A stretch of 51,337 nucleotides of DNA from a bacterium. GTDB taxonomy: Bacteria; Zhuqueibacterota; QNDG01; JABMRT01. The translations under genes and the position numbers were made by a program. Position 1 is the first letter of the stretch, and every line of letters starts with the position of its first letter. Positions 1 to 51,337 of this stretch are shown piece after piece. The notes beneath the pieces are model-generated. The model saw nothing but the letters and a program-made list of their open reading frames with translations. It ran no database searches and was not told the origin of the DNA. The DNA lies in the NCBI GenBank assembly GCA_011046415.1, contig DSAP01000185.1, positions 1 through 51,337 of the forward strand, written 5' to 3'.

Positions 1-481
<481 letters not shown>

Positions 482-544
482 CGAATCATTTTCTAACAAA
501 CGGAAAGTCGAATCCATCAAGATCGAGAGCCGTGCACGCGAAAA

Positions 545-556
545 TTTCAGAGAACA
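545..556 (-). promoter_or_regulatory. boxA-like antitermination element in the rrn leader
   Basis: Minus strand TGTTCTCTGAAA lies between the promoters and 16S and resembles the boxA consensus (T)GNTCTTTRAMA. Confidence 0.55.
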
Positions 557-598
557 AAATGACTTTGGATTAATTTCGCCTTTCTAAAGGCGTTCATA

Positions 599-627
599 AA
601 TATAAATCTTTATTTTCCCGAAGTCAA
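599..627 (-). promoter_or_regulatory. rrn promoter P2 (sigma70-type)
   Basis: Minus strand TTGACT (627-622), 17 nt spacer, TATATT (604-599); AT-rich UP-like tract upstream. Confidence 0.8.
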
Positions 628-689
628 GCTTTTTTTAATTATTGATGTTTTCTTCATCTTAAAAGCAACCCTCGTCTTCGAGGCGTATC

Positions 690-718
690 AGTATACATAA
701 TTCAATAAGAAAAGTCAA
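690..718 (-). promoter_or_regulatory. rrn promoter P1 (sigma70-type)
   Basis: Minus strand TTGACT (718-713), 17 nt spacer, TATACT (695-690). Confidence 0.8.
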
Positions 719-755
719 GCTATTTCATCGCTGTTTATCGGAGAACTTGCATTTT

Positions 756-1853
756 TTATACGCGCGGCGCTTTATCGCGTTCCCAGGCCAACACCTGAGA
801 GGCCGCATCGAGAAGATCTTCGGCCCGGGCATCGGGTTCTCCCTGAAATTCCCCGTCTTCCCCACGAAAACCGGTATTAACCAGGATGATTTTCATGCCT
901 GCACGCCGGCCGGTTTCCATGTCTGAAGTCTTATCGCCTACAAAAACACTCCGGGTCAAATCGATATTCAAATCCTTTTCCGCACGCCGGATCAGGGCCT
1001 GGCCCGGTTTGCGGCAGTCGCATTGTTCGGATTTGGAATGGGGGCAGAAATAGATCTTATCGACGAGGACGCCGACATCCGACAGCTGCCTCAACATTTC
1101 CCGGTTCACCGCATAAAAATCTTCCTTGCCGAAGTAACCCATGCCGATGCCCGGCTGGTTGGAGACGATCACGATCCGGTAGCCCATGTCCTGAAACATG
1201 CGTATCCCGGCCGCCGCATTGGGCAGCAGCCGGAATTTTTCCGGTTCATGCAGGTAGAGCACCTCCTCGTTGATCGTACCGTCCCGGTCGAAAAATACGG
1301 CGGGCGCCTTTCGTGCGGGACGTTGCGTAATATGCGTTGCGCCGTCTTCATCGAGGACCCGGGAACTTGTTTCGTCCCCTCCGTCACGTATTTTTTCGAT
1401 GATCCGTGTCGTCGAAATGGATTGGGTGACGGGGATCAGGCGAACCTCTCCGCCGTATTCTTCCGCGGTGGACCGGGATGTCAGGTCCTCATGGGAATAG
1501 TCTCCTGCCTTGATATAATAATGGGGTCGCAGTGTCCCGATATTTTCCCGGTTCCGCCGTTCGTCGAACAGAAACACATAATCGACGGATTCCAGCGCCG
1601 CAACCACGCGCACGCGGTGCGCGTCGGGAACCACGGGACGGCCCGGACCCTTGTAGGATTGGACGGAACGATCGGAATTCACGCCGACGATCAGCACGTC
1701 GCAGATTCCCTTCGCCTTCTCCAGATAGTCCGCGTGCCCCGCGTGAACGATATCGAAGGCGCCCGAGGTGAATCCGATCTTTTTCCCCGATGCCCGGAGA
1801 TGTTCGCAGAGCGTCCCGAGCTCATCGCGTGTCTTTATCTTATCCTCAATCAT
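756..1853 (-). CDS. Bifunctional ADP-heptose synthase domain (RfaE domain II/HldE-C nucleotidyltransferase) fused to D,D-heptose-1,7-bisphosphate phosphatase (GmhB, HAD-IIIA)
   Basis: N-half: FTSGAFDIVHAGH, VGVNSD..V..YKG..RP, KAGDY, STTRII. C-half: FFDRDGTIN, VSNQPGIG, CPH..CDCRKP, VGDKTSDM. Confidence 0.9.
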   Translation of the reverse strand: MIEDKIKTRDELGTLCEHLRASGKKIGFTSGAFDIVHAGHADYLEKAKGICDVLIVGVNSDRSVQSYKGPGRPVVPDAHRVRVVAALESVDYVFLFDERRNRENIGTLRPHYYIKAGDYSHEDLTSRSTAEEYGGEVRLIPVTQSISTTRIIEKIRDGGDETSSRVLDEDGATHITQRPARKAPAVFFDRDGTINEEVLYLHEPEKFRLLPNAAAGIRMFQDMGYRIVIVSNQPGIGMGYFGKEDFYAVNREMLRQLSDVGVLVDKIYFCPHSKSEQCDCRKPGQALIRRAEKDLNIDLTRSVFVGDKTSDMETGRRAGMKIILVNTGFRGEDGEFQGEPDARAEDLLDAASQVLAWERDKAPRV

Positions 1854-1854
1854 G

Positions 1855-4800
1855 TCACAATGTCTCTCTGATGCCGTCGAGAAGCCTGTCCACCCGGTAA
1901 TCCGACAGGGATTCCGCCTTCCCGATGGCTGAAAAAAGGGCGTCGATTCGTTTCAACCGTTTCCGCTTGCGCGGTTTCGGGCATTCTGAATCCGCAAGAA
2001 CAAGGATGACCCCGGACACGATCAGCCAGCGCATGAGATCCTCAAAGGATTCCTTATGGAACCAGACCGCCTCCTGATGGCGATGGATTCGCACGAACCG
2101 GCGGGCGTCCGGATCGCGGAGCAACTCCTCAAGGAATGCATAAGCCGTGACCTCCTCGGACCGACCGGACATGAAGTCCTGATGCGTGGTCAGGATCCGT
2201 ATGAGCAGTCCGGCTTCCCAGACCCGTTCCGAATCTGGATGAATTTCCGACAGGACATCGGCGACGATCTTGCCGAGCAGCCACTCGTCGATCCAGCTCC
2301 TGCTGACGGCGGCGGCTTCGTGAGGAGTCTGAACGGAACCGAGCCGGTGCAGGACGATCCAGGGAAACAGGACGCCTGCGGCCCGGACCGGCTCATCGTA
2401 AAGGGATTGAATCGCTTCCTGGATAACCGGCGCCTTCGCCTCTGTGAGAAGGGGAAAATGGGTCGCGTGTGCCGGCAATCCGAGGAGTACGGCCAGTTCA
2501 TCCCGCGCGGCTCTTCCCAACCCGGTTTCAGGCGGAGTGACCCGGATGAATCCGGAAATCCCGGCGCCGATCTGATCCATGCTCTGTTCGAAATCATCGA
2601 GCAATGCCCGGTTGAGCGGTTTTCGTAAGTCCGTGATGGCGCCGGTTACGGCGTGGAATGTGACCACGTTGACCAGAGATTTGAAGACGCCGTGCACGGG
2701 CTGCAGGAAAATTTCAGTCAGGGCCTCGGCAATGCTCGGAACACCGCGTCCGCCGAGATAATCGGCCAGCTGATGATAGGGCCGGTCTTCCCGGACCTGT
2801 ACGATCCGGAAATCCATGAAAACCTGATAACGATACCCGTTCAGTTCGATGAAGAGGCCCTGATCGTGAAGGGCCCGGGTGTTGCGGAGGTATTCCAGGC
2901 CGGATATCCGGTCGCGGAACACCACATAGGCGTCCGGGTCGGCAGGCAGGGCGAGCCCCTGGCTGAGGTTTTGGTGAACTATCCTGCGGGACTTTCCCTT
3001 TTCGATATATCCCGCCGACACCCTGATCCAGCCCGCGGTTCCGGCGTAGGCGTTGTTGTATACGACCAGGGCCCGTTCTTCTCCTGCGCGGTTCGAATAG
3101 GCGAATACATTCTCATTGACCGATCCCCCGTCCGTGAAGAAATCATAAAACAAAAAATGCCGGACTTCGGAAAAGAGGAGGCGGTTACGCAGGATCGGGA
3201 AAATTTCCCGTTCATGCCGCTGGATCAGCCAGGGATCGGGCTGTTCGTCCCAGTAGGCGCGGCGAAATTCCATGCCGTATTTTTCAGACAGCCCCTCGAT
3301 CTGTCCGTGTCCGAACATGGGGAGTCCCGGCAGGGTGGCCAGCATAATACAGACACCGAAATATTTATCCTCCTTGCCGAACTGAACGACCGCGGCATCC
3401 TCGTCCGGATTGTTCATGAAATTGACATACCGCTTGAGTATTTCGGGGTCGAAGGCGAGTGTATTCTTGATGACGCTTCGGTATTTCGCGTTCTCTTCGT
3501 TCTTGAGCATGTTCATAAACGCGCTGTTGTATACCCGGTGCATCCCGAGGGTACGCACGAAATAGCCTTCCAACAGCCAGAACGCCTCGGCCAAAAGGAG
3601 GGTATCGGGTGCTTCCCGGGCGACACGGTCGACGACCTCCCGCCAGAATTCTTCGGGAATGGCCCTGTCGAAATCGGTTCCGGACAGGCCGTGCTCGGCA
3701 CGGGAAGGGATGGCGCCACCCGTGCCCGGCTCGGGAAACCAGAGCCGCTGAATATGCTTCTTGGCCAGGGTCATGGCCGCATCGAACCGGATGACGGGAA
3801 ACTGCCGCGCGACGTGGAGTATGTTCTGGATGACCGCCTCGCGGGTCTCGGGATTCAGATAATCGAGCTGAGCCGTGTCGTTCCAGGGCATACTCGTGCC
3901 GTCGTTGCCGTGATAGATGTATTTGACATCCCCGGTCCAGTGATCGACACGTTTGAACACCACGGCCGCATCAGTCCGGGTGTAATAGTGGTCTTCGAGA
4001 TAAATACCGACGCGGTGATCGGAGGAAAGATCGGGTCCGTTGAAGGAATAGGACGGAAAGGGGGAATCCTGGAGTGAAAGAAACCGGCCTGGATGTTCGA
4101 TCACCCAGCGGCCGTCGATGCCGACATGATTGGGCACCATGTCGCCGGACATGCGGATGCCCCGCTTCCAGACGCGCTCCTTGAGGTTCAGGAAGGATGC
4201 TTCGCCGCCGAGATCCGCGGAGATTACATAATCCTTCAGGGAATAGGCGGAGGCCTCGGCCTCCGGATTGCCGCACATCTGCTTGATGCGACGGGAGGCT
4301 TCGCTCCGCTCCCAGAGTCCGATCAGCCAGAGTGCCGTGAATCCCCACCGGGACAGCAAATCCAGTTCCTCATCGGGAATCTGGTCGAGACGGCGGATTT
4401 CGCGCCGGTATTTTTTGGACAACTGATCCAGCCACACATACGTGTTCTTCGCCATCATGACGACGCGGGGCATCCACTCGGCGTCCCGGCTGAATCGTTC
4501 CGTGTCGGTCGTGAGGGCGGAAAAGTCGTGCACATCGGACGGCCCCGGCCCGGTGAAACCCGTCTTGCGTTCTTCCTGTATCAGATCCAGTCCGCGGAGC
4601 AGCCGGTACAGGTATTTGCCGAGCAGTTTGCCCCAATGCCTTCGAATATATTCGAGTTGACCTTCTAGCGAGAACGGTTCAGCAATCGCCGGGCTGCGCA
4701 GCATCGTTAGCAGGGACCGGTCTTCCGGCCCGAAATGGGGCTGTGATTCGAAAAATGTGTCGAGGACGGGCATGATCTCGCGGTAAGCGGTCATCTTCTC

Positions 4801-5310
4801 GAGTCCGGCATCGTCGAACAATTCCAGATAGGGTGAAAATGCGGGATTGAGGTTCGCCAGCCAGAGCATCAGCATTTCTTCGAGCGCGCCGGCCGCATTT
4901 GGTATGCCGTCCGTATCGCCACCCAGGTAGTTTTCGATGGAGATTTCCCCGCGATAAACGGCCACGGGCGGAAACTGGTCCGTGAAATGGCGGATTGCCT
5001 CGGCCGTCCTTTCCTCCCCGATTTTTACCTCTGCGACCCTGAGCGCATTGACCATCGCCACGGGATTGATCTGCTCGCAATACAAGCGGACGACCAGATG
5101 GAGGATCTCGTCGATCAACCCCATCGCATGGATGTCACCCGCACGCACGGCGAGTTCGGGAAAGCGGATCAGATCGCGCCGGGCATTCATGTTCTGGACG
5201 AATTTCCGGACGCCCAGGAAATTGGCGAAAATGACATTGCCGTTCAAGGCATACAGGATTTCGTCGAACCGGTAATAATCACGCGCCTTGCGGGAAATGT
5301 GGAATTCCAT
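1855..5310 (-). CDS. Large alpha-amylase family (GH13) glycoside hydrolase with long N- and C-terminal extensions
   Basis: DMVPNH, RFDAAM (nucleophile), LAEAFW (acid/base), FMNNPDE. Start placed at ATG 5310 (MEFHIS) with GAGGG upstream. Confidence 0.85.
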   Translation of the reverse strand: MEFHISRKARDYYRFDEILYALNGNVIFANFLGVRKFVQNMNARRDLIRFPELAVRAGDIHAMGLIDEILHLVVRLYCEQINPVAMVNALRVAEVKIGEERTAEAIRHFTDQFPPVAVYRGEISIENYLGGDTDGIPNAAGALEEMLMLWLANLNPAFSPYLELFDDAGLEKMTAYREIMPVLDTFFESQPHFGPEDRSLLTMLRSPAIAEPFSLEGQLEYIRRHWGKLLGKYLYRLLRGLDLIQEERKTGFTGPGPSDVHDFSALTTDTERFSRDAEWMPRVVMMAKNTYVWLDQLSKKYRREIRRLDQIPDEELDLLSRWGFTALWLIGLWERSEASRRIKQMCGNPEAEASAYSLKDYVISADLGGEASFLNLKERVWKRGIRMSGDMVPNHVGIDGRWVIEHPGRFLSLQDSPFPSYSFNGPDLSSDHRVGIYLEDHYYTRTDAAVVFKRVDHWTGDVKYIYHGNDGTSMPWNDTAQLDYLNPETREAVIQNILHVARQFPVIRFDAAMTLAKKHIQRLWFPEPGTGGAIPSRAEHGLSGTDFDRAIPEEFWREVVDRVAREAPDTLLLAEAFWLLEGYFVRTLGMHRVYNSAFMNMLKNEENAKYRSVIKNTLAFDPEILKRYVNFMNNPDEDAAVVQFGKEDKYFGVCIMLATLPGLPMFGHGQIEGLSEKYGMEFRRAYWDEQPDPWLIQRHEREIFPILRNRLLFSEVRHFLFYDFFTDGGSVNENVFAYSNRAGEERALVVYNNAYAGTAGWIRVSAGYIEKGKSRRIVHQNLSQGLALPADPDAYVVFRDRISGLEYLRNTRALHDQGLFIELNGYRYQVFMDFRIVQVREDRPYHQLADYLGGRGVPSIAEALTEIFLQPVHGVFKSLVNVVTFHAVTGAITDLRKPLNRALLDDFEQSMDQIGAGISGFIRVTPPETGLGRAARDELAVLLGLPAHATHFPLLTEAKAPVIQEAIQSLYDEPVRAAGVLFPWIVLHRLGSVQTPHEAAAVSRSWIDEWLLGKIVADVLSEIHPDSERVWEAGLLIRILTTHQDFMSGRSEEVTAYAFLEELLRDPDARRFVRIHRHQEAVWFHKESFEDLMRWLIVSGVILVLADSECPKPRKRKRLKRIDALFSAIGKAESLSDYRVDRLLDGIRETL

Positions 5311-26711: not shown

Positions 26712-26914
26712 TCAGTGATTAACGATTTGGAATGTACCTGTTTTTCAGAATCCCGGCCTTTTTTACCAGGAGCCAAGGAAAGGGATTCACGATCGTTTTT
26801 CAGATTACATATTCCCGGAACATAATAAATTCATGGCAAGACCCGTCCGGCCTTCTGAAAAGAACCGCCGCCCGGCAGGCAGGCGGTGCGCCATTCAAAG
26901 AAAAAGGTTCTGTC

Positions 26915-29163
26915 GTGAATGCGTCAAACGGCTATCCCCTCGCAGTCATCCTTTTTCTCTGCGGCCTGCTGACCGTCGGATGCTCGAAGAAATCCGATCA
27001 GATTCTGGATCCCTCGGACGGGGAAAAACCGTCCGCCACGGTCACGATCGGCCCGTCCGGAGGCGTCCTGGAAATGGAAGGAATATCGGTCCACATCCCG
27101 GCCGGGACCCTGGATCAGAACACGACGCTTACCGTTTCGGAGTCGGATGCGGAAAACCCGTTCGGAGAGGCGGGTGTGACCGGCCTGTTCCTGATCGGGG
27201 GCCTGCCGGATAACCTGGGTAAACCCCTTCACATCCGTCTGAGGATCCGGGATGGAGCGGAGGTTGACGAAGGCGGCATCGCATACGGCCTCCCGGGAGA
27301 GGCCTTCCTGACCGGAGAACCCGTCACCGTCTACAGCGTCCACGCCGCGGGAGATTCGGCCGGGTATCTGGTCAGCCGGACGGACGATCCGGCAAAAGCC
27401 GGCAAGAGAATGCCGGCCTCGCCCGGGAAATCCTCCGTGAAGGACGCCCTCAATGTCCTCGGCATCGGGAAGAAAACACTGGAATATGATGTCTGGAACA
27501 TCACCTACTGCGGCATGCTGGATCCCTCGCGATTCACGGAGGAGCTGGACCGGGTGTGGATGATTGTCACCGGCGAACTGAATCTGCCCTTTCAAAATAC
27601 GCCCGACCGGTGGGATCCTTATATATTGTATCACTTGCCTTATCAATCCTGGGAATTCCCGATCCGTATTGTCGCGCTGTCGCGACCAGAGCAGATTGTA
27701 AACCTTCGTTACGAGATCATCCTATACAATGCTTTCCCCCCTTTTTTTCCTGTGCTCAACATCGATGAAACCCTGCTCGGCATACAACGATCCGCGGACG
27801 TAGTCCGGTGTCTGGGTCCGGCCGTTCTGGCGTTGTCCCTCAACACGTATCACCCGCCGTACATCTGGTTGAATCTCGCGGTGATCGCCTGGTCTGGAGA
27901 ATTCTTTTCCGATCCGGATACCGAGGCCGGATCCGTTCAGGGGAATAATCAGATGGCCCCGTTCCGGGGCATGGAGGCCGGTTTTTCAGGCGATCGGGTA
28001 AACCGCCACGGACACAGCCTCGGGATGGCGGCGGTGATCAAATACCTGGTGGACCGGCCCTCCCTTTTCGGAAAAGAGGGACTCCGGAGAACCTATGACA
28101 GACTCCTGGACGGACGGGAGAACCACAACGCCGCCCTGCTCCGAAGCATCGACGCGCTGCCCGCGGAATGGTGGCCCGATTTCTTCAAATCCTATATCGG
28201 CGGAGAGATCTACGGCGTCCCGCCGTCCGTGTTCACGGAAAACGCCTCCGGCACCTGGATCCTCGCGTCGGAAGAGGATGAGCAGACGACCTTTGCCTCC
28301 GATTATCCCGACATGTCGGCCGAACTCTTCCTGGTGGATGTCCAGAACCCGGATATTCACGACGGCGATCGTCTCATCGTCGACGTGTCGGGCACCGTGG
28401 CCGGACAGGGGCTGACGGCGATGATTTTTGCGGTCAATGGAAACAAACTGGACTTCCTGGGCATGGAACACGCGGCTTCTGCCGGACTCCGGCTGACCGG
28501 CATGAAGGCGAAATATGACGCCGGGATCCGCCGGTATCTCGTCGCGGTCGTGAACAGCAACCGGAATGAAACATACACGGGTTCGACGCATATCGAACTG
28601 ACCCTGCGGCATGAGAAAGCACCCGATGAGGTCCCGGGTTTCGTCCAGTGCGATGTATATCTGAATATTCTGATGGAAAGGGAGGACTGGAATACCTATG
28701 ACGGACGAAACACCATCATGACCACACTCAACATCTCGGACGCCGTCTCGATGGCCGGAACTTTCTCAAACAACCGATTCGAAGGAAGCCGGACCTATGA
28801 CATCACGGGGGGATTCTTCGCCGAGAGCGGAACCTGGACCGATTCGGTCGCCCTGACGCTCGGCTCGGACTTTCAGAGTATTTTAAGTCTTGATTATACG
28901 GGCATCGGAACGATACTGAACAAGGACGGGACCACCACCCATACGACAAGACATTTCACCGCCGCGAATATCCCGCACAGCCGAGAGACTTCGATGATCC
29001 CCATACCTACCATATCGGGGAGGAGGGAACCTGTTCCGTGATCACCGGCATTTTCTTTGAGAGTCTCGACTACCGCGGCGAATCCCTCGTCGGATCCAGG
29101 ATCGGCACGGGATATTATGAGTGTGATACATGGAGCGCGATTACGGTGCGGTTGCGGAATTGA
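26915..29163 (+). CDS. Large multidomain lipoprotein (ZU5-like N-domain, degenerate zincin-like core, beta-rich C-domain); apparent -1 frameshift near 28980
   Basis: GTG start with AAAGG RBS, lipobox LTVG-C, TIGPSGGVL...IPAGTL. The -1 frame continues DFDDPHTYHIGEEGTCSVITG...ECDTWSAITVRLRN to TGA 29163, just before a terminator. Confidence 0.75.
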
Positions 29164-29325: not shown

Positions 29326-30633
29326 GTGATGACAAAGATCCATTCCCGCGATGCCGGAAATCCCGCATACGACTGGTATACCCTGGACAATGCGGCCAAG
29401 ATTTATCCGTCGACCGCCTCTGAACATTCTCCGGCTGTGTTCAGACTTTTCGTGACACTGAAAGAACCTGTTAAATCTTGGATCTTACAGCAAGCGATCG
29501 AAGCAGTCATGCCCCGCTTTCCGTATTTTCAGGTCTATCTGAGGCGGGGATGGTTTTGGTATTATCTTCAAAGGCACCATCACATACCCCGGATACGGCC
29601 ACTGGAACCGACACCCGTATCCCGAATACCTGTCCGCGCCGGATCCTCGCATTTACTCCATGTCAGTGCCGGCAGGAACATCATCGCCGTTGATTTCTCG
29701 CATATCCTGACCGACGGGAACGGCGGAATCCGGTTTCTGATCTCATTGATCGCGGAATATCTCAGGTTATGTGGCATGCCGATCGGGTCGCATGAAAATT
29801 TTTTGCATCCTCAAGATCCGCCCCATCCAGAAGAATATGAAGATGCATACAAAAGATACTTCATAAAGGGGGCTCCGGGTCCGGGACACTATTCTCCCGC
29901 CTATCATATCCCGGGAAGACCCGCTCAGGCCGGCCGTTTCCGGACAATCACAGGTAGAATCTCCGTCGACCAGATGCTGGATCGAACAAGAAAAGAGGGC
30001 GTGACTCTGACCGAATATCTTGCGGCGTTGATGATATATTGCCTGGCCCGGATTTACCAGGAGGAAGTCGACCAAGGGAAAAAACATCGAAGGTCCATCA
30101 TCCGGCTTGAGGTGCCTGTCAATTTAAGGTCCTTTTATCCCTCGGGCACCATGAGGAATTTTTCTCTTTACGTATCCCCGGAGATTGACATGAAACTGGG
30201 GCCGTACGATTTTGAAGAACTGTTGAAGCACGTCCATCACAGCATGCGGATCCAGATCAATCGGAAAGAACTCAGCAGGCAGATTTCCCGTAATGTGGGT
30301 GCCGAGTTCAATCCGTTGATCCGTTTTTTACCTCTTTTCATAAAAGACCGTTTTGTAAACTGGATTCATTCAAGAATGGGAGAACGGCTCTATTCCGGGG
30401 TGCTTTCGAATCTGGGCAAGATCTCTCTCCCGGCGGAAATGGAATCCTCGGTTCAATCCATTCATGTTGTGCTGAGCCCCAATCGGATGATGAAAACAAG
30501 CTGTACGGTTATCGGTTATCAAAACGATATACATATCAACTTCTGCAGCCTGGTGGAGAGCCGGAATCTGGAGAGACTGTTTTTTACACACCTCGTTGAA
30601 TACGGTATTTCTGTACACATCAAGGAGTCGTGA
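29326..30633 (+). CDS. Alcohol acetyltransferase-like / condensation-fold acyltransferase
   Basis: WY.LDNAAKIYP N-terminal signature, HILTDG (HxxxDG), PVNLR.FYPS.TMRNF, SNLG. Confidence 0.8.
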   Translation: MMTKIHSRDAGNPAYDWYTLDNAAKIYPSTASEHSPAVFRLFVTLKEPVKSWILQQAIEAVMPRFPYFQVYLRRGWFWYYLQRHHHIPRIRPLEPTPVSRIPVRAGSSHLLHVSAGRNIIAVDFSHILTDGNGGIRFLISLIAEYLRLCGMPIGSHENFLHPQDPPHPEEYEDAYKRYFIKGAPGPGHYSPAYHIPGRPAQAGRFRTITGRISVDQMLDRTRKEGVTLTEYLAALMIYCLARIYQEEVDQGKKHRRSIIRLEVPVNLRSFYPSGTMRNFSLYVSPEIDMKLGPYDFEELLKHVHHSMRIQINRKELSRQISRNVGAEFNPLIRFLPLFIKDRFVNWIHSRMGERLYSGVLSNLGKISLPAEMESSVQSIHVVLSPNRMMKTSCTVIGYQNDIHINFCSLVESRNLERLFFTHLVEYGISVHIKES

Positions 30634-43777: not shown

Positions 43778-45130
43778 TCATCCGCCGTCTTCGGTTTTGC
43801 GGAGGGTAAAACAAAAAGTGCTGCCTTTGCCCTCCCCGCCCGATTCCACCCAGATTTTTCCCCCGTGCCGTCCCACGATCTTCTTGCACAACGCCAGGCC
43901 GGCCCCGGTACCCGGATAATCCCGATCCGTGTGCAGACGTTTGAAAATCAGGAATATCCTTTCGAAATATTCGGGATCGATGCCGATGCCGTTGTCCCGG
44001 ATCAGGAACCGATAATCCTGTTCGCCCGTTTCCGCCCGGATATAGATCCGGGGAATCGGGGCGTCACAGAATTTGACGGCATTGTCGACCAGATGAATAA
44101 ACACCCGGTACAGCTGTTTTCTGTCGCCCATGACCGTCGGCAGGGATTCATACGATAAAGACGGTTTTCTCTCTTTGTATTTATTTCGGATCTGCACATC
44201 GACCGTCTCGACCAGTTTTGTACAGTCGACCGGTTCGAAAGGCCTGCCGTGCGTGTTTACCTGTGAAATAACACGCACATCATTGACCAGGTCCTGGATG
44301 CGAAGACCGCCCTCGACGATGAATGTCATGAAGGTGTCGGCTTCTTCGTTAAAATAGTCTTCATGACGCCGTTTGAGCAGCTGGGAATAGCTGACGATGT
44401 TGCGTATGGGTTCCTGAAGTTGATGGGAGGCGATAAAAAAGAATTGTTCCAGTTCCGCGTTGGTACGGGCCAGCTCCTCCGCCTGACGTTCCAGGGTCCG
44501 TTCCGCCTCCATGCGTTCTTCGATCTCTTTCTGAAGGGCGAGATTGAGTTCGGTCAGTTTTCGCGTCCTCTCCCGGACGCGCATCTCCAGCTCATCCCGC
44601 GGCAACAGCGCGATCCGCTCTTCTTCGAGTATCCCTTTCGGCAAATGCCTGAGTATATCGAAAGCCAGCGGAGAATCGGTGTACCGGTTCCGGATCTGCG
44701 TAAACCCCTGGACCAGGGCCTCCTCCGAACGTTCCGGGGAAACCGATACGGAGTGAAGTTCATGCAGCCGGGATAAAAGGTCCGAGAAAACCATATTGAT
44801 TGCTTCGATACGCCCGGTTTCGGGGAGTCTTTCGACATTCAATATCACCGGCTCCAGATCGACTTCGCCCCCCCGACCCGGACTGCATCCTTCAAAGAGT
44901 ATGGGATTCAGTTCAAAATATTCGGCCAGGAATGCTTCCGACACGTTATTCGCTTCGAACTCTTTGAGGTAGAGCGGGATCAGGCTGCAATAGGCTTCGG
45001 CAAGAAGCGCATCGTCTTTGGGAGAAATGGATTTCTTGCGTTTCCGTTTTCTGTTAAAACCGTGCGCAGGGAAAAGGCCCCGGCGGATCGATCCTTCCGC
45101 GTGATGGAAAAGCTGTCGCAGGACATTCAT
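43778..45130 (-). CDS. Soluble sensor histidine kinase (unrecognised N-terminal domain, coiled coil, HisKA, HATPase_c)
   Basis: H-box ASHQLQEP, N-box HLVDNAVKF, DNGIGI, F.RLH, GAGLALCKKIV..HGG. ATG overlaps the upstream TGA (ATGA, 45127-45130). No TM seen. Confidence 0.92.
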   Translation of the reverse strand: MNVLRQLFHHAEGSIRRGLFPAHGFNRKRKRKKSISPKDDALLAEAYCSLIPLYLKEFEANNVSEAFLAEYFELNPILFEGCSPGRGGEVDLEPVILNVERLPETGRIEAINMVFSDLLSRLHELHSVSVSPERSEEALVQGFTQIRNRYTDSPLAFDILRHLPKGILEEERIALLPRDELEMRVRERTRKLTELNLALQKEIEERMEAERTLERQAEELARTNAELEQFFFIASHQLQEPIRNIVSYSQLLKRRHEDYFNEEADTFMTFIVEGGLRIQDLVNDVRVISQVNTHGRPFEPVDCTKLVETVDVQIRNKYKERKPSLSYESLPTVMGDRKQLYRVFIHLVDNAVKFCDAPIPRIYIRAETGEQDYRFLIRDNGIGIDPEYFERIFLIFKRLHTDRDYPGTGAGLALCKKIVGRHGGKIWVESGGEGKGSTFCFTLRKTEDGG

Positions 45131-46308
45131 GGAGACTCGACTCCTGTCAATGCGCCGACGAGATCCGCCCACTCTTCACGGTCGAACAATCCCGGAGAGA
45201 TGGACAGCAGGACAATCGCATCCGTTTCGGAACACAATGTAGTCAAATCCGAGAGCAAATCGCGGGTTTTTTTTAACCCGTTGACGAGTTTGATCTGATC
45301 GATGCAATCGACGAACAGGATGGGCGCTTGGGTTTGCCTGACGAACTGGGATACGATCGCGGTCAATCCGTCCAGGTCTTTCGGGGAAATCGTATCCGGT
45401 TTCCCGTCGAACGTCAGGTGGAAAACCGGCGTCTTCGCGAGCCGGTATCGCTTTCTGATTTTATCGGGTGCCAGCTTGGTGATGCACAATCCGGAACGCC
45501 GATGGGTGATCTGATCGAAAAAGACGTCATATCCCCGATCGGGCCTGACCTCCCGGATATAATAACAGCGTCCGGGAAGAAGTGAATACTTCAATGGGAC
45601 GTCCGACGGCTTCTCGGCTGAGGGAACCACGATGAATAACTTGTGTTTCAGTACGGCGTAGAAAACAGAGACCGTCCAGATGATGCTCAGGGTGGTCCCG
45701 ATCTCCGGGGTCGATTTACCCGGATCGGGCAGGATCACATTGCTCAGCGTGGCCAGCAGCAAGAAAACCGCACTGCCGAACAGGAGCGGTCTGGCCTGTT
45801 TTTTCTCGATGAGGATATTCTTCCGGATGACTCCGATCAGCAGATAGGTGGCAAAAATGTATAAAAACAGATAATAAAGGGCATAGGCGCCGACGGCCTT
45901 CCCCGGAAGGGAAGTATATCCGTAAAACATGCGATAGGGTTCCGGCAAATAGATCAGATCGGTGAATAAAAACAGGATCAGGAAGAGGACGGCGGGACCA
46001 TAGAGGATGAAACAGGTCGCATTCTTCTGAAGGATTCTTTTTCGGTCCGCAAACACCAGGACAAAATGGACCCAGAGGCTCTGCATGAAACACCATCCGA
46101 AACCGCCGGCCCGGATCAGGATCAATGCGGTTCCCTGACCGACATCGAGCCGGTGTCCGAATTCGGTGAGACACCAGATCGCCAGCGACAGGGAATACAT
46201 CGCAAAAATCCGGCTCAACAGGCTGCGCGGTATCAGGAAGAAAACATAGATCCCCAGCATGACATGGAGAACACCCGGGACCAGCGATAAAAACGCCCAT
46301 ATGGACAT
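45127..46308 (-). CDS. Membrane sensor: HisKA_7TM-like N-terminal domain fused to DUF835 (inactive KaiC-like) domain
   Basis: About 7 hydrophobic segments with LAIWCLTEF, HFVLVF and YAVLKHKLF. C-domain GLCITK..P..IR.RY.L..TPV.HLT, ISP..L, LFVDCIDQI..VNG..T..LL..L. Confidence 0.8.
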   Translation of the reverse strand: MSIWAFLSLVPGVLHVMLGIYVFFLIPRSLLSRIFAMYSLSLAIWCLTEFGHRLDVGQGTALILIRAGGFGWCFMQSLWVHFVLVFADRKRILQKNATCFILYGPAVLFLILFLFTDLIYLPEPYRMFYGYTSLPGKAVGAYALYYLFLYIFATYLLIGVIRKNILIEKKQARPLLFGSAVFLLLATLSNVILPDPGKSTPEIGTTLSIIWTVSVFYAVLKHKLFIVVPSAEKPSDVPLKYSLLPGRCYYIREVRPDRGYDVFFDQITHRRSGLCITKLAPDKIRKRYRLAKTPVFHLTFDGKPDTISPKDLDGLTAIVSQFVRQTQAPILFVDCIDQIKLVNGLKKTRDLLSDLTTLCSETDAIVLLSISPGLFDREEWADLVGALTGVESP

Positions 46309-46494
46309 ATGCCACCCCGTCGAATGATCAAGCCGGCTTTGACGGCTTCATTGAATTTTTAAATCTGCGTGATCTCATGCGCCCCGCCTCAAAATGGTGA
46401 AAGTGCGGTAGCCCCTCGTCGCTCGCATCCAACCGCTGACCATCGCTTTGGATACCCCGAAACCCTCCCTCACGCCATTCGCGAATCTTTCAGG

Positions 46495-47694
46495 TTAAAT
46501 GACTCCCGACTCTTTTCCGACTTCCCGGAAAATATCCAGGGCGCGGTCGATCTGGGAGAAGGTATGCGTGGCGATCACCGTACACCGGATCCTGCTCTGG
46601 TTCGCGGCGACGGCCGGCCAGGAGATGGCCGAGGCGAGAATCCCCCTCTCGAACAGCAATCTGGACATCCGGATCGTCTTCTCTACATCCCCGATGATGA
46701 TCGGAATAATCTGGGTTTCACTGTTGGACAGGCTGAAACCGATTTGTTTCAATCCCTCTTTGAAACGGTGCACATTCTTCCAGAGATTGTCTCTCAACCC
46801 CGGATTGTTCCGGATGATCCTCAGCGCGGCCAGGATGCCGGCGGCCTGTTCCGGAGGCAGGGAAGAACTGAACATGAAGGGGTGCGACCGCATCCGGAGC
46901 GTCCCGAGCACATCCGGAGGACCGGTGACAAATCCCCCCATGGCCCCGAGAGCCTTACTCATCGTCCCCATCTCGAAATCAATTTCCCCCTCTACATGAA
47001 AAAATTCGGGAGTCCCCCGTCCGTTCTCGCCGATGATTCCCGTGGCGTGTGCATCGTCGACCATTACCATGGCGCCGTACCGGCGGGCCAGGGAAACGAT
47101 GTCCGGCAGGGGCGCGAAGTCGCCGTCCATGCTGAACACGCCGTCGGTGAGGATCAGTTTCCGTTTGGCCTGACTCCGCTTGAGAATCATTTCCAGATGG
47201 TTCATGTCATTGTGCTTGAACGTCTTGGTCGGCGACCGGCTGAGCCGGCAACCGTCCACCACGCTGATGTGGGACAAATAGTCCTTGATGATCAGGTTCT
47301 CGTCGTTGTCGATCGTCGGCAGTCCGAGTCCCTCGAAACTGTCCATGATGGCGGGAATGATGCCGATGTTGGCCGCGTATCCGGACTGAAAGATCAGGGC
47401 CGCGGGCTCCTTCTTGAACTCCGCGATCGCCGCTTCCAGTTCTTCCAGGATTTTCAGGTTTCCGGCGACCCATCTCGATTCGCAGGTACCGATCCCGTAC
47501 CGTTCGACGGCCTCGACGGCGGCCTTCTTCACTTCCGGATGCGTGGCGAGACCCAGATAATTGTTCGAACAGAGACAGAGATAGGGTTTCCCTCCGATGA
47601 CGATTTCGGGATACGGGATCTCATCCACGACCCGCAAGTCCGAATAAAAATCGCGGTCCTGAGCGGCTTTATGCAGTTGTCTTAAATATTCCAT
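46495..47694 (-). CDS. PLP-dependent alpha-oxoamine synthase family enzyme (BioF/Kbl/SPT/CqsA-like); substrate unassigned
   Basis: SNNYLGL, F.SGY.AN, DGVFSMDGD, DDAHATG, GTMSKALG (PLP Lys). Atypical DYLSHISVVDG and GTCESRWVAG. Confidence 0.88.
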   Translation of the reverse strand: MEYLRQLHKAAQDRDFYSDLRVVDEIPYPEIVIGGKPYLCLCSNNYLGLATHPEVKKAAVEAVERYGIGTCESRWVAGNLKILEELEAAIAEFKKEPAALIFQSGYAANIGIIPAIMDSFEGLGLPTIDNDENLIIKDYLSHISVVDGCRLSRSPTKTFKHNDMNHLEMILKRSQAKRKLILTDGVFSMDGDFAPLPDIVSLARRYGAMVMVDDAHATGIIGENGRGTPEFFHVEGEIDFEMGTMSKALGAMGGFVTGPPDVLGTLRMRSHPFMFSSSLPPEQAAGILAALRIIRNNPGLRDNLWKNVHRFKEGLKQIGFSLSNSETQIIPIIIGDVEKTIRMSRLLFERGILASAISWPAVAANQSRIRCTVIATHTFSQIDRALDIFREVGKESGVI

Positions 47695-48205
47695 TCCGCA
47701 GTCTCCTCTGGAGCATCCCCATCATGCAGGTCCGGGTCACGACACAGGCCGAACAGATCAGGAACACGTGTGTAAACACGTATACAACGCTGAAAACGGG
47801 ATAAACGATCGCGTAAATCGGATGGAGTTTGTACAGCCAATAAATCGGAAAGAGAATCAATGAGACCGCGACGGCGGTGGCGCCCAATTCGAGGAACCAG
47901 TTGAGCCCGGCCCCGGTTTTCTCCATTTTATTGTAGAAAAACAGACGGTAAAATACCGGGGCGAGGATGAAGCCTCCGATGGGATGGCATCCTTTGCCGG
48001 CATGGGGGCATTTCAGGTCTTCACAGCAATACGCCTCGAGGAGATTGGCGACCAGCCAGATGGCGATATAGATCAGCGAAAGCAGAGGAGCGAACCGCCA
48101 CAGAGCGATGATCACCAGGATCATGACCGTAAAAACCGGGACCATGAGTATCCAATACAACGTTTGTCTTTCACAGCGTGCACAGGGCTGTTCGCTTTTT
48201 GTCAT
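47669..48205 (-). CDS. Cys-rich four-TM hypothetical membrane protein
   Basis: CARC, two TM hairpins each followed by a Cys cluster (CCEDLKCPHAGKGC; CSACVVTRTC). GAGGA RBS before MTKSEQ; overlaps the downstream gene by 26 nt. Confidence 0.7.
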   Translation of the reverse strand: MTKSEQPCARCERQTLYWILMVPVFTVMILVIIALWRFAPLLSLIYIAIWLVANLLEAYCCEDLKCPHAGKGCHPIGGFILAPVFYRLFFYNKMEKTGAGLNWFLELGATAVAVSLILFPIYWLYKLHPIYAIVYPVFSVVYVFTHVFLICSACVVTRTCMMGMLQRRLRNGIFKTTA

Positions 48206-48283
48206 ATGCAATCGTCCTCTCTGTTTTCGTATGGGATTTCGGGTTTCACCGGCCTCCGGCGCCATATTCATATTTTCGGAATC

Positions 48284-49346: not shown

Positions 49347-50082
49347 TCACCATTCCCGGCGCAGATTCTGTTTCAAATACCGTTCCATGATGCGACGGAT
49401 GAACTCCTCCGTATCTATCGTCATGCCGATTTCACAATTGGGGGGCCGGCTTTCATCGAGAACCGTATACCCCTCGTCGGTGACGCGCACATGCGCCTTA
49501 CGCGTGGAGAACAGCTCGGGCCAGAGCGCCATGCCCACGGCCACCACGTCGAACAGGGTCGGGTCCGGCCGGGCATACTCCTCATACAGCCACAGGGTAT
49601 ACAGGCCGCAGAGTGCATTCGTCAGCGGCGACTGCCGCATGAGAAGCCGGAGCCGGTTCGCCTCATCGAGGCGGACGAAGGTCGTGATGTCGAGTCCCGC
49701 CAGGGTCGGATTCGCCCCGGAGGAGACGAATTTCTGCGCGGCCGGGATGTCGGCGCGGACGTTCCATTCGGCGTCGATGACGGGACCGGTCGAATATCCC
49801 ATGTAAAAGGAGCCGAACATGGCGATCACCCTTTTGGCGAGTTTCAGCGCTTCGGGATCCTTCTGGATCACATCCCGCATGTTCGGAACCGGTCCGACCG
49901 TGACCAGGATGACCTCCCCGGGATATTTACGCAGATTCCGGACTCGCAAGGATCAGGGCGACCGCGAACGCATCGTCGATGTCGCCGCCCAGGTCGCAGT
50001 CGAATATGATTTTCTGTCTTCCGGACGCATGGGAAAAAACCGCCAGGCACGTTGCGCACAACAGGATCCCCCAGTGTTTCAT
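49347..50082 (-). pseudogene. Secreted inosine/uridine-preferring nucleoside hydrolase, disrupted by an internal out-of-frame deletion at ~49935-49942
   Basis: AAGGAGG RBS, signal peptide, KIIFDCDLGGDIDDAFA...ASPE then stop. The other frame resumes at NLRKYPGEVILVTVGP.PN, MFGS, AEWNV..D, GLDIT, LFD. The intervening family segment is missing. Confidence 0.8.
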
Positions 50083-50147
50083 CTGATATGCCTCCTTGAT
50101 TCTGTCCAAGAGTGCGGGAGACTTTCTGGATATCAGTTCCCCGCCCG

Positions 50148-51337
50148 TTATTTCCGTTTCGCGTTTCCCCCCGGCCTTTCCGCACCGAACAGCCCGAGCT
50201 GTCCGTCCCCGCGCCGCCGGGACCGCCTCTTTCCGGCGGATTCGAACGCGGCCAGCGCCTCCTCGATGTCGTCGAGGAAGGCGCTCCGCGGCAGGCGGAC
50301 GGGTTGTCCCCGGAGGAACCGTTTTCCGGCATGGGTCAGGATGAGCTCGGACCGGGCGCGCGTCATGCCGACATAGAGCAGCCGGCGCTCTTCTTCGGGA
50401 TCGGACTCCCGGCCGAAAAGGCGGTAGGGAATGAGTCCCTCCTCGCAGCCCGCGATGAACACGCATTCGAATTCGAGCCCCTTGGACGCGTGCAGCGTGA
50501 GCACGGATACGGACTCGGTATCGGGACGCAGGGTGTCCTGTCCCGTCCCGATCGCGGTGGAGAGTAGGAATTTTTCCGCGTCCTCCCCGAATTCCCCGGC
50601 CAGATCGAGGAGGCGCCGGACCGCCGGCTGCGCGTTCTCGGGGATCGGGACCGACCCGCGCGCGATCAGGTCCCGGAAGAGCGCAGGGACGGATTCCCGG
50701 CCGACGCGCGACACCCAGTCCGCCCGTTCGGATTCCGGGATGCCATACCGGTCCGCCACGGGCCGGGTTAGCGGTCCGTCGCCCGCGCGGCACAACGCGC
50801 GGAACAGCGCCACGAGGGAACGGACGGGTTCCTGGTCGAAAAAAGGCCTCTCCCCGGCGGTCTGGAACGGGATGCCGTGATCCTGAAAGGCTTTCTCGAT
50901 CGCCGCGGTCTGGCGGCCGGTGCGGCAGAGCACGGCGAAATCGGACAGGCTCAAATCCGCGGTTTCATACCCCGTCGCGACCGCGCTGTCCATCGAGAAG
51001 AACCGCAGCCCGCCCATCTTCTCCTCGATGCGGCGCGCGATAAATTCGGCCTCGCTCTTGTCGGTCGCCTCGTGCCGGATACGGATCCGGAGACCCCGGT
51101 TCAATCCTTTCAGGGTTTCGGATTTCAGCGACCCGCCGCCGAGAATGCGGCGCGAGGCCGACAGGACGGTCTCCGTGCAGCGGTAACTCAGCGGGAGACG
51201 GTACACACGGGCGTCCGGATACTCCTCCTGAAACCGGCGGATATGCGAGGCGTCCGCGCCGCGGAATCCGTAGATGGCCTGATCCGGATCGCCGATGACG
51301 AAGAGATTCGATTCCGGTCCGGGCATGAGCAGCCGGA
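50148..51337 (-). CDS. UvrD/REP superfamily 1 helicase, C-terminal part (5' end outside the window)
   Basis: GDPDQAIYGFRGA, YRC, AVLCRT, TLHASKGLEF, EERRLLYVGMTRA. Confidence 0.93.
   Translation of the reverse strand, partial: RLLMPGPESNLFVIGDPDQAIYGFRGADASHIRRFQEEYPDARVYRLPLSYRCTETVLSASRRILGGGSLKSETLKGLNRGLRIRIRHEATDKSEAEFIARRIEEKMGGLRFFSMDSAVATGYETADLSLSDFAVLCRTGRQTAAIEKAFQDHGIPFQTAGERPFFDQEPVRSLVALFRALCRAGDGPLTRPVADRYGIPESERADWVSRVGRESVPALFRDLIARGSVPIPENAQPAVRRLLDLAGEFGEDAEKFLLSTAIGTGQDTLRPDTESVSVLTLHASKGLEFECVFIAGCEEGLIPYRLFGRESDPEEERRLLYVGMTRARSELILTHAGKRFLRGQPVRLPRSAFLDDIEEALAAFESAGKRRSRRRGDGQLGLFGAERPGGNAKRK

Follow-up and report, generated by a model that had tools for sequence, protein, structure and literature searches.

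In cyanobacteria, the KaiC-family protein KaiC binds the N-terminal domain of the histidine kinase SasA and controls its activity; KaiC is a soluble, active ATPase and autokinase, and the docking domain of SasA is KaiB/thioredoxin-like. In three-component systems, for example UhpC-UhpB, a non-kinase membrane protein signals to a histidine kinase by contact. The primary description of inactivated KaiC-like (iKaiC) domains is said to be that of Makarova, Galperin and Koonin in mBio in 2017. In its passages on archaeal REC-DUF835 regulators, Galperin et al. 2018 (PMC5847659) lists DUF835 as iKaiC. Here, we consider a pair of genes from a window of 51,337 nucleotides (nt), that is, the whole stretch analysed (positions 1 to 51,337 of contig DSAP01000185.1, assembly GCA_011046415.1, from a bacterium of Zhuqueibacterota). 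The first gene encodes a seven-transmembrane (7TM) receptor ending in DUF835, and the second encodes a histidine kinase with an N-terminal helical domain, called X below. In our opinion, the two products likely form a split sensor kinase, in which the 7TM-DUF835 protein would signal to the kinase through docking of DUF835 on X, rather than a chance juxtaposition. Such docking on the kinase N-terminal domain was proposed in an initial annotation of the locus and has gained support from adjacency, spacing, constancy, fusions and complex prediction, all of it computational.

The features of the pair are as follows.

45127..46308, minus strand: receptor gene, 393 amino acids (aa), HisKA_7TM + DUF835 (open reading frame (ORF) and Pfam domains)
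45622..46284, minus strand: HisKA_7TM (PF16927), receptor residues 9-229 (Pfam)
45166..45540, minus strand: DUF835 (PF05763), receptor residues 257-381, RecA/KaiC/FlaH-like fold without a P-loop
45127..45130, minus strand: ATGA stop/start overlap of the receptor TGA and the kinase ATG (read from the sequence)
43778..45130, minus strand: histidine kinase gene, 450 aa, without transmembrane (TM) segments (ORF, Pfam, NCBIfam, hydropathy)
44603..45028, minus strand: domain X, kinase residues ~35-176, helical, proposed docking site of DUF835 (AlphaFold2 model, no family)
44453..44602, minus strand: conserved linker helix, kinase residues ~177-226, from X to the phospho-acceptor helix (invariant residues, AlphaFold2 helix at 178-199)
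43793..44452, minus strand: kinase core, HisKA (227-290) and HATPase_c (335-446) (Pfam, NCBIfam)

The pairing was surveyed from both sides. On the receptor side, nine loci were taken with one genome per species, and the DUF835 gene is followed immediately by X in seven of them. In the two others (L004 and L007), the receptor genes are in tandem and X is absent from the surrounding 4 kb; X-kinases are encoded elsewhere in those genomes, one (L052) with a receptor upstream, one (L053) with no DUF835 nearby and one on a contig too short to judge. X was present in all five genomes tested. On the X side, a metagenome scan with X as the sole query gave 33 loci, six of which have less than 600 nt upstream of X and are unjudgeable; a DUF835 gene stands immediately upstream on the same strand in 26 of the 33, that is, in 26 of the 27 informative loci. 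The receptor and X genes overlap or leave a gap of at most 20 nt in 23 of these 26 positive loci (from the receptor stop to the first possible start, with start codons called mechanically). This near-constant adjacency suggests that the partners dock, and recurrence of the pair in dozens of independent loci makes chance juxtaposition a negligible concern.

DUF835 and X are the sole constant elements across the loci. The outputs after X include HisKA-HATPase, PAS-HisKA, PAS-HisKA_3, HisKA_2/HWE, hybrids with one or two receivers, and one HD domain. The receptor forms before DUF835 are a short 7TM, a long 7TM with a linker of ~150 aa, a 250-aa form and the form of an archaeal locus (L010). X and DUF835 also occur in one polypeptide in nine of the 150 listed X representatives, all above the Pfam cut-off; the relative P0078, for example, is built as TM-X-PAS-PAS-DUF835.

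Several loci show further arrangements of these genes. A second DUF835 gene is located downstream of the X-kinase in two metagenome loci (L018, 3025-3474; L029, 5796-6248). On either side of the tandem duplicate 7TM-DUF835 receptor genes of the bacterial loci L004 (4001-6397) and L007 (2766-5173), which have no adjoining kinase, there are genes for beta-propeller proteins bearing a type IX secretion sorting tail. Locus L008 encodes two DUF835 receptors, a long one of 533 aa and a short one of 386 aa (648-2246 and 4001-5161); they flank a small membrane protein and an acyltransferase, ahead of a single X-kinase and a receiver-bearing hybrid kinase. A fusion with the order DUF835-like-PAS-GAF-HisKA-HATPase_c was found in genome G046 of the window's phylum (L046, G046:C2:82073-85414, ORF 1-2013, minus strand), its DUF835-like part scoring 26.2 bits, below the cut-off.

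It may be asked whether this adjacency is simply inherited synteny of one mobile island and hence functionally uninformative, which we regard as highly improbable. The cassette to which the pair belongs (43778-48271) has a G+C content of 0.542 as compared with 0.615 and 0.619 in its flanks, and it is patchy in the window's phylum, where, of 167 genomes, one has X and three have DUF835, the latter including one match below the cut-off. Together, the patchy distribution and low G+C point to horizontal spread and are consistent with spread as a block; membrane genes tend towards lower G+C anyway. However, gene order and spacing are kept between loci where receptor identity goes down to ~40% and X identity to ~28-30%. 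The outputs have been swapped many times, whereas X stays by DUF835, and independent fusions of the two exist.

The pair was then considered at the level of structure, with DUF835 (receptor residues 235-393, 25-row alignment) and X (kinase residues 30-200, 54-row alignment) as inputs for complex prediction. The complex scored 0.89 (0.88, 0.89 and 0.89 in separate runs), and the best of three controls scored 0.00. At least 88% of contacts are shared between runs, and the predicted local distance difference test (pLDDT) value of the partner is at least 82. In calibration, the mark was met by 116 of 157 solved complexes and by 2 of 215 mismatched pairs, counts that are only roughly valid here because own alignments were used. 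The complex model thus supports the predicted binding of DUF835 to X.

On the receptor, the predicted contacts are residues 254-255, 278-280, 299-300, 309-310, 337-338, 341-344, 371 and 373-374. They map to loops at the C-terminal ends of parallel strands (AlphaFold2 secondary structure) and include the invariant K278 and G344 and the near-invariant F300 and K310. The contact face of DUF835 would therefore correspond, according to the model, to the nucleotide-holding face of its active relatives. On X, contacts are predicted at kinase residues 70, 73-78, 101-103, 106, 109-110, 113-114 and 117, and a conserved loop, E-x-N-P-x-L-F (kinase 73-79; NPxLF), is placed on this vestigial nucleotide face.

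The two genes may also be co-transcribed and act in one pathway with no touch between DUF835 and X, the coupling running via membrane domains or a third protein, or each protein sensing separately; we find this unlikely, and yet a number of observations lean towards it and weigh against docking. Most X-kinase relatives carry their own set of 4-5 TM helices, and these might touch the 7TM domain; as most relatives have two membrane-bound partners, the membrane offers another possible route for contact. The receptor side of the interface is slightly, not significantly, more conserved than the rest (entropy 1.28 versus 1.64, permutation p=0.056), and on the X side the permutation test gave no enrichment in conserved positions (entropy 2.46 versus 2.19, p=0.88). 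The complex score is a model confidence rather than a measurement. Orphan X-kinases exist: that of genome G167 (L053) has no DUF835 gene within ~7 kb, and L044 is a true negative among the 33 metagenome loci, with no DUF835 upstream of X. In the fused proteins X stands ahead of DUF835, which is the reverse of the gene order, and no fused 7TM-DUF835-X-kinase was found among proteins of 689-2000 aa in a weak search with the DUF835 part as query. Archaeal DUF835 is fused to receiver domains in the proteins treated in the relevant passages of PMC5847659, so other partners are possible.

Against a pathway without contact, the kinases of the window, L003 and L027 have no TM helices and still retain both X and the adjacency. 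The constancy of X and DUF835 alone across loci and the existence of fusions would be hard to place in it, and the same holds for the gap between the complex score and the best control, with agreement between runs, confident partners and a rough calibration. Since the window's kinase lost the TM helices of most relatives, the DUF835-X contact would be its sole link to the membrane. We therefore continue to prefer docking of DUF835 on X.

As for the domains themselves, the initial annotation described a 7TM input domain that ends in a DUF835-like domain, and this description holds for the receptor. HisKA_7TM matches over model positions 3-224 of 224 with E 3.9e-11 and 43.7 bits (cut-off 28.6), and a crude hydropathy scan shows seven hydrophobic regions. 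DUF835 was recognized within the predicted region (residues ~240-393) at 257-381, with E 9.2e-18 and 64.8 bits, above the cut-off of 33.1; a six-frame search of the genome gave 67.6 bits. The same two-domain architecture occurs in 70 homologues of the receptor. The receptor and kinase genes are each single-copy in the genome.

The receptor loop at residues 116-137 (GYTSLPG) is strongly conserved and alternates with loops rich in lysine and arginine at 87-98 and 168-175. By the positive-inside rule, this alternation places DUF835 in the cytoplasm, a topology predicted from sequence, and the conserved loop at ~116-137 is probably extracytoplasmic.

The AlphaFold2 model of DUF835 is a confident alpha/beta structure (pLDDT 93.4, predicted template-modelling score (pTM) 0.89, 35-row alignment). 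Foldseek matched it to 139 PDB chains at E<=1e-3, the best being the archaellum protein FlaH (4yds, E 6.5e-6, template-modelling score over the query (TMq) 0.66), followed by KaiC (TMq 0.57-0.62), RecA, RadA and Rho. The sequence profile of DUF835 detects FlaH only (E 0.013). The Walker A motif GxxxxGK[ST] occurs in none of 25 family members, and a bare GK[ST] tripeptide occurs in four of the 25; in two of these four it lies just ahead of the first strand. In the receptor, the P-loop position reads G-L-C-I-T-K (SGLCITKLAP), with only ~3 residues between strand and helix. The aspartate at the Walker B position (D334) is invariant. The earlier label of a dead KaiC-like domain is supported by the modelled fold and the missing P-loop, and the C-terminal domain belongs with DUF835 and the KaiC/FlaH/RecA-like folds by both sequence match and predicted structure.

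The next gene, that of the kinase, overlaps the receptor by ATGA exactly as first noted, and AGGAG stands at 45141-45145, 10 nt upstream of the kinase ATG (45130). An alternative earlier start, GTG at 45172, would give 464 aa (mechanical ORF list); the kinase of the relative L003 begins at the equivalent of the ATG form, likewise with a 4-nt overlap. HATPase_c (335-446) scores 90.4 bits against a cut-off of 26.4, HisKA (227-290) scores 24.5 bits, slightly below its cut-off of 26.9, and NCBIfam kinase models span residues 204-445 with E down to 5.8e-43. The histidine of the H-box SHQLQEP has aligned counterparts in relatives. Having HisKA and HATPase_c, the protein belongs to class I of histidine kinases, and catalytic activity is predicted from its sequence. 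The hydropathy scan revealed no hydrophobic segment in the kinase. In agreement with the absence of an adjacent response regulator in the initial annotation, the window's contig carries none of the 88 receiver-domain matches of the genome.

Domain X appears to be an undescribed helical kinase domain of ~140 residues, judging by sequence searches and modelling. The N-terminal region had been described as helical and unassignable, and indeed no family was found for kinase residues 1-200 in Pfam or NCBIfam at E<=1, with no NCBIfam model over 1-175; a Pfam search for residues 1-200 at E<=1e-4 was likewise negative. AlphaFold2 gave an all-helical domain for kinase residues 37-199 (pLDDT 85.7, pTM 0.75, 54 rows), and according to DSSP it is all-helical bar two short bridges. 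The family is rare: an exhaustive profile search of 1.84 billion representatives found X in 263 of them at E<=1e-3, and the number falls to 108 at E<=1e-10 and to 48 at E<=1e-30. A known sensor domain occurring independently of DUF835 is thus apparently not what was found here, X having no family in Pfam or NCBIfam and being almost always beside a DUF835 gene.

Across eight diverse members, the invariant residues are D40, L78, F79, R101, R107, I159, L160, P164, G166, E169, L175, L176, L181, E182, V185, R188, T189 and L192. No cysteine or histidine is among them, which argues against a metal or haem sensor. The last six (L181, E182, V185, R188, T189 and L192) are the invariants of the linker helix, and the region ~177-226 may act as a signalling helix. 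Hydrophobic helices ahead of X were counted in 81 near-full representatives: 65 have from two to six (five in 26 and four in 25), one has a single helix, and 15 have none, like the window's kinase, some of these being possibly fragments.

Comparison of the X model with the PDB by Foldseek gave no matches at E<=1e-3. A glutathione transferase or globin fold was rejected as noise (best Foldseek rows, E 0.27-1.5, TM-score ~0.2). In a wide search by VIA-align, the phage Mu baseplate (9ki1) came first, with Z 6.3, 112 aligned residues and a root-mean-square deviation of 4.4; spidroin N-domains and other helical bundles came next (Z 5-6), below what counts as meaningful for helical proteins. No feature match for X was obtained in the ESM Atlas; look-alikes with TM-scores of 0.62-0.63 occur there in clusters carrying PatA_N, the aligned part being without a family, and serve as a lead only. 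A word-indexed search with X yielded six proteins, too few for taxonomy. Occurrence of X within the ~150-aa linker of the long receptors is not claimed, the matches to X being at E 0.046-1.1.

A mechanism may be proposed for the docked pair. The 7TM protein would sit in the membrane, with DUF835 in the cytoplasm, and sense a signal in or at the membrane. The dead-ATPase domain would hold the kinase through X, its former nucleotide face receiving the X loop 73-79. A change in the 7TM domain would pass to DUF835, to X, along the conserved helix ~177-226 and on to the phospho-acceptor helix, altering autophosphorylation, and the kinase would then act on a response regulator encoded elsewhere (unlinked). 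The signal might be the product of the co-encoded BioF/Kbl-family acyltransferase considered below. Physical binding in cells, the direction of the signal, the ligand and the regulator are what we infer in this scheme.

DUF835 and X might bind with the flow reversed or static, the kinase controlling the 7TM protein or the receptor just anchoring a soluble kinase; this is, in our view, quite improbable, somewhat more so than a pathway without contact. It is true that a soluble kinase such as that of the window would require an anchor at the membrane, and that many X-kinases have PAS or GAF sensors of their own, so they would not have to rely on 7TM input. Yet HisKA_7TM is catalogued as a kinase input domain (Pfam; PMC5847659), and Pfam detects no other sensor domain in the window's kinase. 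Anchoring alone would leave the pairing unexplained in most relatives, which are membrane-anchored already. Signalling from the 7TM-DUF835 receptor to the kinase thus remains the preferred direction.

Two more genes stand upstream of the receptor.

46495..47694, minus strand: BioF/Kbl-family acyltransferase dependent on pyridoxal phosphate (alpha-oxoamine synthase), 399 aa (Aminotran_1_2), directly upstream of the receptor
47669..48271, minus strand: 200-aa cysteine-rich membrane protein with several cysteine pairs, overlapping the acyltransferase start (no Pfam or NCBIfam family)

The acyltransferase falls below every NCBIfam equivalog cut-off: it scores 402.6 against 426.45 for BioF (TIGR00858), 407 against 460 for Kbl, and 221.4 bits against 428 for the CqsA/LqsA-type model NF005526. 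The copy in L008 narrowly passes the BioF cut-off (428.2). A housekeeping BioF was considered and rejected, the score being below the TIGR00858 cut-off; no bioB, bioA or bioD was found above cut-offs in the 92%-complete genome, which makes a housekeeping role in biotin synthesis unlikely. The genome has two further paralogues, which share 42% and 36% identity with the window's acyltransferase; one is a clear Kbl and the other is serine-palmitoyltransferase-like.

The acyltransferase is found upstream of the receptor in four of the nine genome loci (L005, L006, L008 and L009), in 13 of the 33 metagenome loci and in a sister genus (G033). Across 14 loci, its copies share 61-67% identity with that of the window, and the receptors of the four genome-locus copies are ~40% identical. 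Travelling of the acyltransferase with the receptor hints at a synthase-receptor pair. In L008, L009 and L043, the gene immediately before the acyltransferase encodes a 46% identical homologue of the 200-aa protein, and this membrane protein is possibly the fourth gene of the cassette.

Most named members of this conserved mobile cassette are bacterial. The initial annotation saw in it an archaeal module joined to a bacterial one, and this part is not borne out, with one archaeal locus (L010) among the named members; X was found in one of two genomes of the phylum of L010, an uninformative sample. As a speculative extension, which we put forward with considerable doubt, the cassette could be a new type of self-contained circuit for cell-cell or lipid signals, moving horizontally between uncultured bacteria and archaea. 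The acyltransferase, possibly assisted by the 200-aa protein, would synthesize an alpha-amino- or hydroxy-ketone as the signal, the 7TM domain would sense it in the membrane, and the pseudo-KaiC/X pair would relay it to the kinase.

Elsewhere in the window, an inosine-uridine nucleoside hydrolase gene is seemingly split (49347-50793, minus strand). The ORF 49347-49949 covers positions 105-296 only of the 297 of the hydrolase profile, and the Asp-rich N-terminal motif and a signal-like start are found in a different frame, where the overlapping ORF 49927-50793 ends. The split may be a frameshift or an assembly error. By the cell-division/cell-wall cluster, the plus-strand ORFs 26732-29041 (769 aa) and 29326-30633 (435 aa) gave no Pfam match at E<=1e-3.

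DUF835 and other inactivated KaiC-like domains are catalogued as signalling parts. A literature text search found no paper on DUF835-kinase pairing, on domain X or on a binding partner or mechanism of such domains; an earlier mention in Makarova et al. 2017 is possible. DUF835 hereby gets its first testable candidate partner, X on histidine kinases, and the interface residues named above are open to mutation. If the docking is true, it explains the pseudo-ATPase as a signalling adaptor, defines a new family of kinase input domains and shows that a detachable pair of adaptors can connect a 7TM sensor with a kinase. The linkage with the acyltransferase raises a possible new synthase-receptor system in uncultured sediment and marine lineages.

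Comparing the locus with known systems, the archaeal REC-DUF835 regulators, as presented in the corresponding passages of PMC5847659, share with it PF05763, an inactivated KaiC-like domain in signal transduction. There, however, DUF835 is the output of a response regulator with no known partner in those passages, whereas here it is the output of a bacterial 7TM sensor with a candidate partner domain on a kinase. The MEDS (iKaiC)-kinase fusions treated in the same source resemble the locus in that an inactivated KaiC-like domain feeds a histidine kinase; MEDS is a different Pfam family and is fused to the kinase, and no MEDS match was found in the receptor at E<=1. The alpha-hydroxyketone quorum-sensing systems CqsA/CqsS and LqsA/LqsS (PMC3285556, PMC3376566) likewise have a gene of the alpha-oxoamine synthase family by a membrane sensor kinase system. 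In contrast to these, the acyltransferase of the window has 221 bits against a cut-off of 428 for their type, and the receptor itself is no kinase, being built of 7TM and DUF835.

Fused HisKA_7TM histidine kinases (PF16927) have the same 7TM input domain, but here it is on a separate polypeptide, and a pseudo-ATPase and a putative docking domain come between it and the kinase core. Unlike KaiC in the KaiC-SasA pair, DUF835 has no P-loop and is fused to a 7TM sensor; X is all-helical, so the docking is not of the KaiB/thioredoxin-like kind. In relation to UhpC-UhpB, the protein families are unrelated, and the predicted contact modules here are a dead KaiC-like domain and an apparently undescribed helical domain.

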